Positions 6,038-27,063 of a stretch of 64,000 nt of DNA are shown here, piece after piece. Made by a program: the position numbers and the translations under genes. Below the pieces are notes generated by a model. That model was not told the DNA's origin and did no database searches. It saw nothing but the letters and a program-made list of their open reading frames with translations. How positions within the stretch are numbered: the stretch's first letter is position 1; every line of letters starts with the position of its first letter. This DNA comes from Escherichia coli. Its GTDB lineage: Bacteria > Pseudomonadota > Gammaproteobacteria > Enterobacterales > Enterobacteriaceae. The DNA is taken from assembly GCF_013315695.1 (NCBI RefSeq), contig NZ_CP054353.1; one strand, 5' to 3'.

Positions 6038-6092
6038 GGTGATGCTGCCAACTTACTGATTTAGTGTATGATGGTGTTTTTGAGGTGCTCCA

Positions 6093-6368
6093 GTGGCTTC
6101 TGTTTCTATCAGCTGTCCCTCCTGTTCAGCTACTGACGGGGTGGTGCGTAACGGCAAAAGCACCGCCGGACATCAGCGCTATCTCTGCTCTCACTGCCGT
6201 AAAACATGGCAACTGCAGTTCACTTACACCGCTTCTCAACCCGGTACGCACCAGAAAATCATTGATATGGCCATGAATGGCGTTGGATGCCGGGCAACAG
6301 CCCGCATTATGGGCGTTGGCCTCAACACGATTTTACGTCACTTAAAAAACTCAGGCCGCAGTCGGTAA
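6093..6368 (+). CDS. insA: IS1 InsA (transposition inhibitor / N-terminal part of InsAB' transposase), 91 aa
   Basis: ORF translation [37 protein letters not shown]... matches IS1 InsA as I recall it. Confidence 0.95.
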
Positions 6369-6790
6369 CCTCGCGCATACAGCCGGGCAGTGACGTCATC
6401 GTCTGCGCGGAAATGGACGAACAGTGGGGCTATGTCGGGGCTAAATCGCGCCAGCGCTGGCTGTTTTACGCGTATGACAGGCTCCGGAAGACGGTTGTTG
6501 CGCACGTATTCGGTGAACGCACTATGGCGACGCTGGGGCGTCTTATGAGCCTGCTGTCACCCTTTGACGTGGTGATATGGATGACGGATGGCTGGCCGCT
6601 GTATGAATCCCGCCTGAAGGGAAAGCTGCACGTAATCAGCAAGCGATATACGCAGCGAATTGAGCGGCATAACCTGAATCTGAGGCAGCACCTGGCACGG
6701 CTGGGACGGAAGTCGCTGTCGTTCTCAAAATCGGTGGAGCTGCATGACAAAGTCATCGGGCATTATCTGAACATAAAACACTATCAATAA
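6287..6790 (+). CDS. insB: IS1 InsB reading frame (joined to InsA by -1 frameshift to make the transposase), 167 aa
   Basis: ORF translation [21 protein letters not shown]... matches IS1 InsB. A6C slippery motif at 6344-6350 lies in the insA/insB overlap. Confidence 0.93.
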
Positions 6791-6805
6791 GTTGGAGTCA
6801 TTACC

Positions 6806-6814
6806 AACGATGTC
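6806..6814. repeat. IS1 copy 1 target-site duplication, right (AACGATGTC)
   Basis: Matches 6029-6037 exactly. Confidence 0.9.
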
Positions 6815-6960
6815 AAGTAGATAAAAAAGGATAGATTTTGAATTCATTTGGCTTATCAGTCCGAATTCAGACAAATATAAACAAATCCCGCTTAATATTA
6901 AAATATACTAACTGGTAAAAGATATTACTTAAACGTGTAATTTCACTTTCTTTAAACAAC

Positions 6961-7030
6961 AAAAAACCGCCAAAATCAGGCGGTTATTTGTTGCTGGTTT
7001 GGTTCGCGGCCTTTCCAGCAGGTTCACTTG
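6961..7030. repeat. Intergenic repeat module, copy B (includes a terminator-like hairpin at 6961-6992)
   Basis: AAAAAACCGCCaaaatcaGGCGGTTATTTGTTGCTGGTTTGGTTCGCGGCCTTTCCAGCAGGTT is near-identical to 5917-5980. Confidence 0.75.
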
Positions 7031-7285
7031 TGTTGCATGAACAACGCAGGTGCCTCACAGCAAAAGAATACTCGCTGTTAAGAAATTTTGTGTCAAGTAA
7101 AAAACGAGTAATTATTTTTCGGTTAGCGTATTATTGACACCGACCCTTTCCGCCGTCTCGCAAACGGGCGCTGGCTTTAGGAAAGGATGTTCCTTGGCCG
7201 TAAATGCAAGTGTATCTCGTCGCTTGCTATCGCGGCAATATCGCCAGTGGTGCTGTCGTGATGCGGTCTTCGCATGGACCGCACA

Positions 7286-7411
7286 ATGAAGATACGGTGC
7301 TTTTGTATCGTACTTATTGTTTCTGGTGCGCTGTTAACCGAGGTAAATAATAACCGGAGTCTCTCCGGTAACAATTTATTGGTGGTTAACAACCTTCAGA
7401 ACAGCAGGTAA
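7286..7411 (+). CDS. Hydrophobic small ORF inside ryfA, 41 aa (45 aa from ATG at 7274): MKIRCFCIVLIVSGALLTEVNNNRSLSGNNLLVVNNLQNSR; candidate TimP-like small membrane toxin
   Basis: Open frame translated by hand. One predicted transmembrane helix. Lies within the terminated transcript. Weak ribosome-binding site. Below the 60-aa cutoff of the ORF track. Confidence 0.4.
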   Translation: MKIRCFCIVLIVSGALLTEVNNNRSLSGNNLLVVNNLQNSR

Positions 7412-7417
7412 GCCCGA

Positions 7418-7444
7418 ATGCCGCCCTTTGGGGCGGCATATTTT
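7418..7444 (+). terminator. Intrinsic terminator of the ryfA-like transcript
   Basis: ATGCCGCCC(tttg)GGGCGGCAT followed by ATTTT; overlaps the sseB stop codon on the other strand. Confidence 0.75.
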
Positions 7445-23870: not shown

Positions 23871-24190
23871 TGAATCGAATTTATGCGTGTCCCGTTGCGG
23901 ATGTGCCGGAGGGTGAGGCTCTCCGGATCGATACCTCGCCCGTCATCGCCCTGTTCAACGTAGGCGGCGAGTTTTATGCCATTAACGATCGTTGCAGCCA
24001 TGGTAATGCGTCGATGTCAGAAGGGTATCTGGAAGATGACGCCACGGTGGAGTGCCCGCTGCACGCCGCCAGTTTTTGCCTGAAAACGGGGAAAGCATTA
24101 TGCCTGCCCGCCACCGATCCGCTAACCACTTATCCAGTACACGTTGAAGGTGGTGACATCTTCATCGACTTACCGGAGGCGCAGCCATGA
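23870..24190 (+). CDS. hcaC: Rieske ferredoxin component, 106 aa
   Basis: CSHGN...CPLHAASF motif. Confidence 0.93.
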
Positions 24191-24999
24191 GCGATCTGCA
24201 TAACGAGTCCATCTTTATTACCGGCGGCGGTTCGGGATTAGGCCTGGCGCTGGTCGAGCGATTTATCGAAGAAGGCGCGCAGGTTGCCACGTTGGAACTG
24301 TCGGCGGCGAAAGTCGCCAGTCTGCGTCAGCGATTTGGTGAACATATTCTGGCGGTGGAAGGCAACGTGACCTGTTATACCGATTATCAACGCGCGATCG
24401 ATCAGATCCTGACTCGTTCCGGCAAACTGGATTGTTTTATCGGCAATGCGGGCATCTGGGATCACAATGCCTCACTGGTTAATACTCCCGCAGAGACGCT
24501 CGAAACCGGCTTCCACGAGCTGTTTAACGTCAACGTACTCGGTTACCTGCTGGGCGCAAAAGCCTGCGCTCCGGCGTTAATCGCCAGTGAAGGCAGCATG
24601 ATTTTCACACTGTCAAATGCCGCCTGGTATCCTGGCGGCGGTGGCCCGCTGTACACCGCCAGTAAACATGCCGCAACCGGACTTATTCGCCAACTGGCTT
24701 ATGAACTGGCACCGAAAGTGCGGGTGAATGGCGTCGGCCCGTGTGGTATGGCCAGCGACCTGCGCGGCCCACAGGCGCTCGGGCAAAGTGAAACCTCGAT
24801 AATGCAGTCTCTGACGCCGGAGAAAATTGCCGCCATATTACCGCTGCAATTTTTCCCGCAACCGGCGGATTTTACGGGTCCGTATGTGATGTTGGCATCG
24901 CGGCGCAATAATCGCGCATTAAGCGGTGTGATGATCAACGCTGATGCGGGTTTAGCGATTCGCGGCATTCGCCACGTAGCGGCTGGGCTGGATCTTTAA
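24187..24999 (+). CDS. hcaB: cis-dihydrodiol dehydrogenase (SDR family), 270 aa
   Basis: [13 protein letters not shown]-binding motif. Confidence 0.93.
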
Positions 25000-25008
25000 G
25001 GAAGCACG

Positions 25009-26211
25009 ATGAAAGAAAAAACGATCATTATTGTCGGTGGCGGGCAAGCGGCGGCAATGGCTGCGGCCTCGCTACGCCAGCAAGGGTTCACCGGTGAGCT
25101 GCATCTGTTTTCCGATGAGCAACATCTTCCTTATGAACGCCCCCCGCTCTCGAAATCCATGTTGCTGGAAGATTCCCCACAGTTGCAGTCTGTGTTACCC
25201 GCTCACTGGTGGCAGGAAAACAATGTTCATCTGCATTCCGGTGTAACCATCAAAACATTGGGCCGCGACACACGAGAGTTAGTGTTAGCTAACGGCGAAA
25301 GCTGGCACTGGGATCAGCTTTTTATAGCAACCGGCGCGGCAGCCCGACCGCTGCCGTTGCTTGATGCACTGGGAGAACGCTGCTTTACTCTGCGCCATGC
25401 CGGCGATGCCGCCAGACTGCGAGAAGTTCTGCAGCCCGAACGGTCAGTCGTGATTGTCGGTGCCGGAACTATTGGTCTGGAACTGGCTGCCAGCGCCACG
25501 CAGCGCGGATGTAAGGTGACAGTGATTGAACTGGCGGCAACCGTCATGGGCCGTAATGCACCACCGCCCGTGCAACGCTATCTTTTGCAGCGCCATCAGC
25601 AGGCTGGTGTGCACATTCTGCTCAATAATGCCATTGAACATGTGGTCGATGGTGAAAACGTAGAACTGACGCTGCAAAGTGGCGAAACGCTTCAGGCCGA
25701 TGTGGTGATTTACGGTATTGGTATCAGCGCCAACGACCAACTGGCTCGCGAGGCCAACCTTGATACTGCCAATGGCATTGTCATTGATGAGGCTTGCCGC
25801 ACCTGCGATCCCGCGATCTTTGCCGGTGGCGATGTGGCAATCACCCGTCTTGATAATGGTGCACTACACCGCTGCGAAAGCTGGGAAAACGCCAATAACC
25901 AGGCGCAAATTGCCGCTTCCGCAATGTTGGGGCTACCGCTTCCGCGGCTGCCGCCGCCGTGGTTCTGGAGCGATCAGTACAGTGATAACTTACAGTTTAT
26001 TGGCGATATGCATGGCGATGACTGGCTTTGTCGTGGCAACCCGGAAACTCAGAAGGCGATTTGGTTTAATCTGCAAAACGGCGTGCTTATCGGTGCAGTC
26101 ACGCTGAATCAGGGACGTGAGATTCGCCCAATCCGCAAATGGATCCAGAGCGGCAAAACGTTTGATGCGAAACTGCTGACAGATGAGGACATCGCGCTTA
26201 AATCACTGTAA
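25009..26211 (+). CDS. hcaD: Ferredoxin-NAD(+) reductase component, 400 aa
   Basis: [11 protein letters not shown]-binding motif. Confidence 0.93.
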
Positions 26212-26286
26212 CCAGGATAATTAGCGAATATCTCAACTCCTGGGGCGTGGCGAGGTGCCAGAGTGTGTATTACGTTTAAATCACAT

Positions 26287-26295
26287 TATCTTGCA
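26287..26295. repeat. IS1 copy 2 target-site duplication (TATCTTGCA)
   Basis: Identical 9-mer at 27064-27072 directly flanking the other end. Confidence 0.9.
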
Positions 26296-26310
26296 GGTAA
26301 TGACTCCAAC

Positions 26311-26814
26311 TTATTGATAGTGTTTTATGTTCAGATAATGCCCGATGACTTTGTCATGCAGCTCCACCGATTTTGAGAACGACAGCGACTTCCGTCCCAG
26401 CCGTGCCAGGTGCTGCCTCAGATTCAGGTTATGCCGCTCAATTCGCTGCGTATATCGCTTGCTGATTACGTGCAGCTTTCCCTTCAGGCGGGATTCATAC
26501 AGCGGCCAGCCATCCGTCATCCATATCACCACGTCAAAGGGTGACAGCAGGCTCATAAGACGCCCCAGCGTCGCCATAGTGCGTTCACCGAATACGTGCG
26601 CAACAACCGTCTTCCGGAGCCTGTCATACGCGTAAAACAGCCAGCGCTGGCGCGATTTAGCCCCGACATAGCCCCACTGTTCGTCCATTTCCGCGCAGAC
26701 GATGACGTCACTGCCCGGCTGTATGCGCGAGGTTACCGACTGCGGCCTGAGTTTTTTAAGTGACGTAAAATCGTGTTGAGGCCAACGCCCATAATGCGGG
26801 CTGTTGCCCGGCAT
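26311..26814 (-). CDS. insB: IS1 InsB reading frame, 167 aa
   Basis: Identical protein to the 6287..6790 ORF. Confidence 0.93.
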
Positions 26815-27008
26815 CCAACGCCATTCATGGCCATATCAATGATTTTCTGGTGCGTACCGGGTTGAGAAGCGGTGTAAGTGAACTGCAGTTGCCATGTTTT
26901 ACGGCAGTGAGAGCAGAGATAGCGCTGATGTCCGGCGGTGCTTTTGCCGTTACGCACCACCCCGTCAGTAGCTGAACAGGAGGGACAGCTGATAGAAACA
27001 GAAGCCAC
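26733..27008 (-). CDS. insA: IS1 InsA, 91 aa
   Basis: Identical protein to the 6093..6368 ORF. Confidence 0.95.
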
Positions 27009-27063
27009 TGGAGCACCTCAAAAACACCATCATACACTAAATCAGTAAGTTGGCAGCATCACC

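Follow-up and report, generated by a model that had tools for sequence, protein, structure and literature searches.

Composite transposons such as Tn9 and Tn1681 consist of two IS1 copies that flank a segment of DNA, and, as Tn1681 illustrates, inverted IS1 pairs can form them. The element itself is well represented by IS1A of K-12, which is 768 bp long, ends in imperfect terminal inverted repeats, carries insA and insB' with an A6C −1 frameshift site and is flanked by 9-bp duplications. Homologous IS1 copies on one chromosome are also the substrate of the IS1-mediated inversions and deletions documented in E. coli, both in the LTEE (PMC4173774) and in mutation-accumulation lines (PMC5009759), where inverted copies give inversions and direct copies give deletions.

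We analysed a 64-kb stretch of E. coli DNA (hereafter the window) in which a repeat search found a single long repeat, 768 nt at 100% complementarity, formed by two IS1 copies in opposite orientation. Copy 1 lies on the plus strand at 6038..6805, in the sseA–ryfA spacer, and copy 2 on the minus strand at 26296..27063, in the hcaD–yphA spacer, with 19,490 nt between the two arms. The sequence-only reading had supposed the copies to be identical at the nucleotide level, and base-by-base string comparison showed that they are (768/768). Both are of the IS1A type, matching K-12 IS1A at 767 of 768 positions, the exception being IS1 position 444, which is G here and T in K-12. They also share its architecture: each is 768 nt long with imperfect ends, IRL GGTGATGCTGCCAACTTACTGAT and IRR GGTAATGACTCCAACTTATTGAT (∼23 bp expected), the 91-amino-acid InsA frame of insA is open, as is that of insB', and the frameshift motif TTAAAAAAC is intact at IS1 position 305 (6342 in copy 1). 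A relative's annotation labels the identical sequence an IS1A family transposase with programmed frameshift. Judged by these features, both copies look transposition-competent.

Target duplications and order of insertion

Each IS1 is bracketed by its own perfect 9-bp direct repeat, as had been claimed and as re-reading of the flanks bore out: AACGATGTC at 6029..6037 and 6806–6814 around the left copy, and TATCTTGCA at 26287..26295 and 27064–27072 around the right. In the close relative MS 21-1, where both insertion sites are empty, the left site holds AACGATGTC once; the empty right site holds TATCTTGCA once in MS 21-1, MSB1_4I and AF3. Because the empty sites in relatives hold one copy each, these 9-mers are true target-site duplications. 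Since, moreover, the outer 9-mers differ and each IS1 has a pair of its own, the copies represent two simple insertions and no single composite transposition.

The nearest relatives order the two events. Across ∼63 kb there are 3 SNPs between the window and AF3 and 5 between the window and MSB1_4I, both being complete E. coli genomes, and the sole structural difference from either is the right IS1: AF3 and MSB1_4I carry the left copy but have an intact hcaD–yphA junction without IS1. The left copy is thus common to these two relatives whereas the right copy is absent from them and specific to the present sequence, and the insertions were therefore sequential, the left being the older. That these near-clonal genomes have the left copy alone agrees, together with the differing 9-mers, with the earlier claim of two separate simple insertions. 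Neither site is occupied in K-12, as the first reading had supposed. When the junctions were searched against 5,426 complete genomes, the left one was found in 2 and an IS1 at the exact right site in 0, with no full-length match of comparable identity. Neither insertion is thus common or fixed, and the left site is not unique to the present sequence, being shared with MSB1_4I and AF3.

These genomes belong to a clone rich in IS1: at least 40 IS1-matching pieces are present in each of MSB1_4I and AF3, whereas the median genome has 11 places. The clone is human-associated, comprising a rectal-swab isolate, a blood-culture isolate and the present sequence; a literature search found no description of the MSB1_4I lineage.

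We consider it highly probable that the pair goes back to two simple transpositions, independent of each other and successive in time, by which an active IS1A-type element entered AT-rich intergenic DNA of this high-IS1 clone. The GC content within 30 bp of the two insertion sites is 30% and 32%, compared with 52% for the whole window. The first element would have entered the sseA–ryfA spacer in an ancestor that the present sequence has in common with MSB1_4I and AF3, and the second, in the opposite orientation, the hcaD–yphA spacer in the lineage of the present sequence only, each insertion duplicating 9 bp of its target, as is typical of IS1. The copies have not recombined with each other, and the 19.5-kb block keeps its ancestral orientation. 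The right copy could derive from the left one or from any further IS1 of the same sequence elsewhere in the genome. As such, the pair is ordinary strain-to-strain variation.

The candidate timR promoter, yphA and possible selection

The left IS1 separates the two parts of a timPR type I toxin–antitoxin locus. Downstream of it, the ryfA RNA, which is the timP mRNA, is found on the plus strand at 7140..7444 (Rfam RF00126, 313 bits) and contains a small open reading frame at 7286–7411 (plus strand), whose 41-amino-acid translation is named timP in a relative's annotation. Upstream, on the minus strand at 5918..6004, lies a putative gene for the antitoxin small RNA, timR, the positional homologue of K-12 timR (b4811). 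RNA folding predicts a terminator hairpin for it (fold z-score −4.1), which the terminator scan did not report, possibly through extending the stem across the adjoining stretches of A and T. Over 17 nt, timR (5988–6004) is exactly complementary to the timP mRNA (7205–7221), with a predicted duplex energy of −34.1 kcal/mol. By this predicted pairing, timR here is the cognate copy for the resident timP, being the only well-matched partner of the timP 5'UTR.

A candidate timR promoter, recognized from a conserved pattern, occupies 6011..6037 on the minus strand and is truncated by the IS1. Its −10 element GAGTAT (ATACTC on the plus strand, 6011–6016) and 17-bp spacer are kept, whereas the −35 hexamer TTGACA is cut by the left IS1 to its last four bases, GACA (6034–6037), so that the junction reads CCGACA. 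The four timR-like modules, those of K-12 and of this lineage, all keep the arrangement ATACTC-N17-TGTCAAG, although the spacers vary, and the annotated 5' end of K-12 TimR lies 7 nt downstream of GAGTAT. Because the IS1 splits the −35 hexamer, TimR transcription is probably weakened. A consensus promoter scan, which requires 4/6 matches in the −10 element, did not flag the candidate promoter, whether the site was empty or carried the IS1, its −10 matching at 3/6 positions; conservation across the four modules and the RNA fold were used instead. Neither the scan nor inspection by eye found an outward hybrid promoter at the IS1 ends, the TTGGCA located 8 nt inside IRL having, by eye, no usable −10 at 16–18 bp in either flank.

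At the other end of the block, the right IS1 lies 21 bp upstream of the ATG of yphA (27085..27507, plus strand), which encodes a DoxX family membrane protein and, from its translation and flanking sequence, is an intact open reading frame; the insertion probably uncouples yphA from upstream transcription. Three unrelated E. coli strains, CE12-1, TUM1881 and EC24, have an IS1 in the same orientation with junctions within 10 bp of this site. Their elements differ from the present one by 6 to 55 nt, and their junction positions and strain backgrounds differ as well. These strains illustrate what may follow from such an insertion: in TUM1881 ∼6.1 kb (yphA–yphF) has been lost beside the IS1, and in EC24 a multi-resistance island abuts it, in contrast to the right IS1 here, which has an intact duplication and no accompanying rearrangement. 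The neighbourhood of the right site is thus one that IS1 has targeted repeatedly.

These observations raise the question of whether selection favoured one of the insertions, or both, through an effect on regulation, the left as a knock-down of TimR that de-represses TimP, a small membrane toxin, the right by silencing or re-wiring yphA. We regard this as unlikely. In its favour, the left IS1 splits the conserved TTGACA of the candidate promoter of the one timR copy that pairs well with the timP 5'UTR of this strain, deletion of timR in Salmonella induces TimP expression (PMC7667032), the left insertion has been maintained in three isolates, some of them from Australia and the UK, and the 10 bp upstream of yphA have been struck by IS1 at least four times independently. 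However, the lifting of repression in Salmonella had no apparent effect on growth (PMC7667032) and an APEC timR deletion behaved as wild type (PMC13188913), so that neither growth nor virulence is altered in the published deletions of timR; the three isolates are near-clonal and count as one event; and an AT-rich hotspot for insertion would account just as well for the repeated hits at yphA. Nor do insertions converge on timR. IS1 elements of other lineages in the sseA–ryfA spacer, with duplications CGAATTCA(G) and CGTGTTCGG, lie outside the timR promoter, and convergence of IS1 on that promoter was rejected since those insertions fall elsewhere in the spacer. The more specific proposition, that the left IS1 is a natural and stably inherited TimR promoter knock-down under which TimP would be chronically de-repressed in a human-associated clone, is likewise unlikely.

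Orientation and rearrangement of the bracketed block

The block between the copies (6806..26295, 19,490 bp) contains sseB, pepB, iscX–fdx–hscAB–iscAUSR, trmJ, suhB, yfhR, csiE, hcaT, hcaR and hcaEFCBD, as read from the annotation of a relative's sequence that differs by 1 SNP, and the genes listed for it in the sequence-only reading match this annotation. It also carries the Rfam IS128 RNA region and ryfA/timP. The block is colinear with the syntenic relative at 99.996% identity and also with K-12, and its GC skew (−0.044) has the same sign as that outside (−0.059 and −0.044). In the consensus sequence the 9-mers are matched around each copy and the interior has the same orientation as in the relatives. 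With the interior colinear and the duplications unswapped, no inversion has happened, in line with what had been concluded from the letters. Among the 5,426 complete genomes we found no inversion isomer and no recombinant IS1 junction, which, as one flank plus IS1 at ∼100% identity, would rank near the top of the search.

It is plausible that RecA-dependent inversion could act on the pair and that adjacent deletions could start from either copy. Any two IS copies of this kind have the same potential, and neither outcome is observed here. The LTEE inversions (PMC4173774) spanned between 164 kb and 1.8 Mb and greatly exceed the 19.5-kb interval here, where the substrate is present without the rearrangement. 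Might the pair nevertheless already be an invertible segment, with both orientations present in the culture and the sequence giving the majority form? Perfect inverted homology over 768 bp, at a distance of 19.5 kb, suffices for RecA-dependent inversion, IS1-mediated inversions do occur in E. coli (PMC4173774), inversions are undetectable in short-read data (PMC5009759), and a minority isomer in the culture would not show in a single consensus sequence, but nothing in the sequence points that way, the duplications being unswapped and the gene order ancestral. A crossover inside IS1 would furthermore leave the IS–flank junctions and neighbouring promoters unchanged, which gives no obvious switch function, and, judging from K-12 coordinates and GC skew, inversion would place the isc–hsc–fdx operon head-on to replication, probably at a mild cost. 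We therefore think an established invertible segment improbable.

It is very improbable that the right IS1 is an assembly artefact, a repeat copy put in the wrong place. The element is present in this sequence only, the nearest genomes being without it, and dozens of identical IS1 copies in the genome could confuse an assembler. Against this, the exact target is perfectly duplicated over 9 bp around the right IS1, something that misjoins do not produce, the sequence on both sides runs seamlessly into syntenic DNA, and in three other strains IS1 has genuinely inserted within this 10-bp stretch.

Finally, although two intact and identical inverted IS1 copies do flank a DNA segment, as in Tn1681, an origin of the pair and its interior as a 21-kb IS1 composite transposon is refuted with next to no residual doubt, because each copy has its own duplication (AACGATGTC versus TATCTTGCA) in place of the shared outer one and the interior, far from being foreign to the locus, is chromosomal DNA at its original position, in the same order as in K-12 and in relatives that have one or neither IS1. 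A comparison of the block with 72,556 plasmid records returned two kinds of hit only: multi-megabase records, which are apparently chromosomes deposited under the plasmid label, and isc homologues from Klebsiella with ∼84% identity.

Significance of the insertions

Two sequential simple insertions remain the best account of the pair, and beyond strain typing their significance is slight. The right IS1 is a clean marker that sets this isolate apart from the otherwise near-identical AF3 and MSB1_4I, and it suggests recent IS1 transposition in the clone. Together the two copies form a latent rearrangement substrate of a kind missed by short-read sequencing. The split timR promoter is the only part with some biological interest: the clone and MS 21-1 form a natural strain pair for studying the effects of TimP de-repression, and if the knock-down of TimR were real and had been retained by selection, the clone would be a natural experiment on unrestrained TimP.

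Two IS1 insertions acquired in sequence

A repeat search of the 64 kb returned a sole long repeat, an inverted pair of IS1 elements at 6038-6805 (plus strand, sseA-ryfA spacer) and 26296-27063 (minus strand, hcaD-yphA spacer), whose 768-nt arms are 100% complementary, are identical by direct string comparison too, and stand 19,490 nt apart. The sequence-only reading had described identical copies, each with its own perfect 9-bp direct repeat, and so they proved: AACGATGTC lies directly before 6038 and directly after 6805, and TATCTTGCA directly before 26296 and directly after 27063. 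The element differs from K-12 IS1A by a single base (position 444). With the imperfect terminal repeats expected for IS1, an open insA frame of 91 codons, an open insB' frame and the frameshift motif TTAAAAAAC, both copies look transposition-competent, and the RefSeq genome annotation of identical sequence gives an IS1A-family transposase with programmed frameshift.

We queried a set of 5,426 complete E. coli genomes with both insertions, each extended by 400 bp of flank per side, the kind of junction comparison that the earlier reading had proposed. The left insertion was found at full length (99.9-100% identity) in only two of them, MSB1_4I, from a rectal swab in Australia, and AF3, from a blood culture in the UK, and the right insertion was found at exactly this site in none. 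Base-by-base comparison over ∼63 kb showed the window to be near-clonal with both (3 SNPs against AF3, 5 against MSB1_4I), the sole structural difference being the right IS1 and its 9-bp duplication; their hcaD-yphA spacer is intact, at 96 bp with one TATCTTGCA. In the close relative MS 21-1 both sites are empty and each 9-mer is present once, and K-12 MG1655 has neither insertion, in line with the sequence-only reading. Since the left IS1 is present in both near-clonal relatives, the right in neither, and MS 21-1 has both sites empty, these were two sequential events, the left insertion being older and shared and the right recent and specific to this sequence. IS1-matching pieces number at least 40 in MSB1_4I and at least 40 in AF3, with a median of 11 places per genome across the 5,426, which suggests that the IS1 load of the clone is high and possibly growing; set against the 19 places in MS 21-1, the counts in the two relatives may reflect an IS1 expansion in the clone.

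The left insertion and the putative timR promoter

In the K-12 annotation timR, which encodes an antitoxin sRNA, lies on the minus strand shortly 3' of sseA. Alignment revealed ATACTC-N17-TGTCAAG on the plus strand in the two timR-like modules of K-12 and the two of this lineage, with differing spacers; its minus-strand reading is TTGACA, 17 bp, GAGTAT, and the annotated 5' end of K-12 TimR lies 7 nt downstream of GAGTAT. Because the motif is conserved, we infer that it is the timR promoter. The left target AACGATGTC overlaps TGTCAA of the sseA-proximal module, and the putative −35 hexamer on the timR side (5918-6037, minus strand) therefore reads CCGACA in place of TTGACA, while the −10 hexamer and timR itself are intact. 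MSB1_4I, AF3 and this sequence have all inherited the insertion, the MS 21-1 site being empty; IS1 insertions of other lineages in this spacer lie at different positions. Deletion of timR in Salmonella induces TimP with no apparent growth effect (PMC7667032), and avian pathogenic E. coli deleted for timR behaves like wild type (PMC13188913); the left insertion was therefore probably tolerated rather than selected.

The spacer holds two timR-like modules, and K-12 and this lineage carry the specificity types in opposite order (window 5988-6004, 6955-7061 and 7205-7221; K-12 locus L004 3357-3456 and ∼3690-3785). By predicted pairing, the sseA-proximal module is the cognate antitoxin of this strain: its duplex energy is −34.1 kcal/mol versus −21.9 for the second module, its predicted fold includes a terminator hairpin (z-score −4.1), and it agrees with how TimR homologues have been defined (PMC7667032). 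The sseA-proximal module of either strain pairs with that strain's own timP 5'UTR (predicted duplexes of −34 and −40 kcal/mol) and the ryfA-proximal module corresponds to the other strain's type. Toxin mRNA and antitoxin thus covary, which hints at an ancestral tandem timPR pair. A ryfA 5'-like remnant (ttagcgtattatcgacaccggccctttccgccgtg...) follows the first timR module in K-12 (L004 ∼3500-3560) and several other lineages; it is absent from this lineage, and the spacer is ∼53 bp shorter. IS128, an intergenic sRNA candidate and not an insertion sequence, matches as an Rfam family at 6825-7003 (plus strand; 179 nt against a 209-position model), starting 20 bp past the IS1 right end; if it is transcribed from the plus strand, the left IS1 would occupy its promoter region.

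The right insertion and a recurrent target at yphA

The right IS1 sits 21 bp before the start codon of yphA (ATG at 27085) and leaves the ORF intact. No terminator or plus-strand promoter was predicted in the empty hcaD-yphA spacer, and neither a promoter scan nor inspection by eye gave a convincing outward hybrid promoter at the element, so that transcription from upstream probably no longer reaches yphA.

The site is AT-rich (GC 32% within 30 bp versus 52% for the window). The 10-bp stretch immediately before yphA is a recurrent IS1 target, with four independent junctions, in the window (26287-27100), EC24, CE12-1 and TUM1881. Those of the other three genomes are displaced by 6 to 10 bp from the window's and have its orientation; the IS1 variants involved are 6 to 55 nt distant from ours. 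In CE12-1 and TUM1881 the junction falls at an identical position with IS1 copies 48 nt apart. In TUM1881 (L016 8411-9178) the IS1 at the hcaD-yphA junction is joined directly to sequence near yphG, and yphA-yphF are missing (∼6.1 kb, window ∼27083-33181), which looks like an IS1-adjacent deletion. In EC24 (L015 12407-25177) the IS1B at this hotspot adjoins a multi-resistance island in the chromosome, with aadA, dfrA12, intI1, IS26, strAB, sul2, IncQ rep remnants and blaTEM, and no yphA was found in the 12 kb examined.

A site inside yphA (duplication CACGCTGGG) carries three IS1 variants, 1, 5 and 51 nt from the window's IS1, at the identical position and in the same orientation in the unrelated strains GN25, FG92-1 and AR_0081 (loci L006, L007 and L017). 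These could represent repeated hotspot insertion or conversion between IS1 copies.

Possible consequences of the inverted pair

When inverted IS copies recombine, the segment between them is inverted and an IS remains at each end, and such inversions escape short-read detection (PMC5009759); a 1.49-Mb inversion arose through IS1-IS1 recombination in the long-term evolution experiment (PMC4173774). Here the crossover would fall within IS1, so the IS-flank junctions would be unchanged and nothing switch-like would follow. In K-12 the region lies at 2.65-2.67 Mb, and the plus-strand GC skew is negative, from which the minus-strand isc-hsc-fdx operon would be co-directional with replication now and head-on were the block inverted.

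The colinearity with K-12, unswapped duplications and lack of inversion described in the sequence-only reading all held. The interior (6806-26295) aligns with its relatives in the same orientation at 99.996% identity and keeps K-12 gene order, each IS1 individually retains its matched duplication, and GC skew keeps its sign (−0.044 inside the block, −0.059 and −0.044 outside). No recombinant junction, in which one flank and IS1 join the wrong partner at high identity, occurs among the 5,426 complete genomes. Searching a plasmid collection with the block matched only multi-megabase records and Klebsiella isc homologues (∼84% identity). Three of the matched records (H61-H63), of 4.8-4.9 Mb, are apparently chromosomes filed as plasmids, so matches there are no sign of plasmid carriage. 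A single composite transposition is excluded because the outer 9-mers differ, in keeping with the two separate simple insertions first proposed.

On the inward side suhB and the isc genes, which are important according to K-12 essentiality data, would limit IS1-adjacent deletions; outward or short ones would be feasible. We found no evidence that the pair functions as a unit. In conclusion, these are two ordinary, independent IS1 insertions, without rearrangement, in an IS1-rich strain. The earlier observation and its interpretation were both correct and their significance is low, the disrupted putative promoter of timR and the insertion hotspot at yphA being small curiosities.
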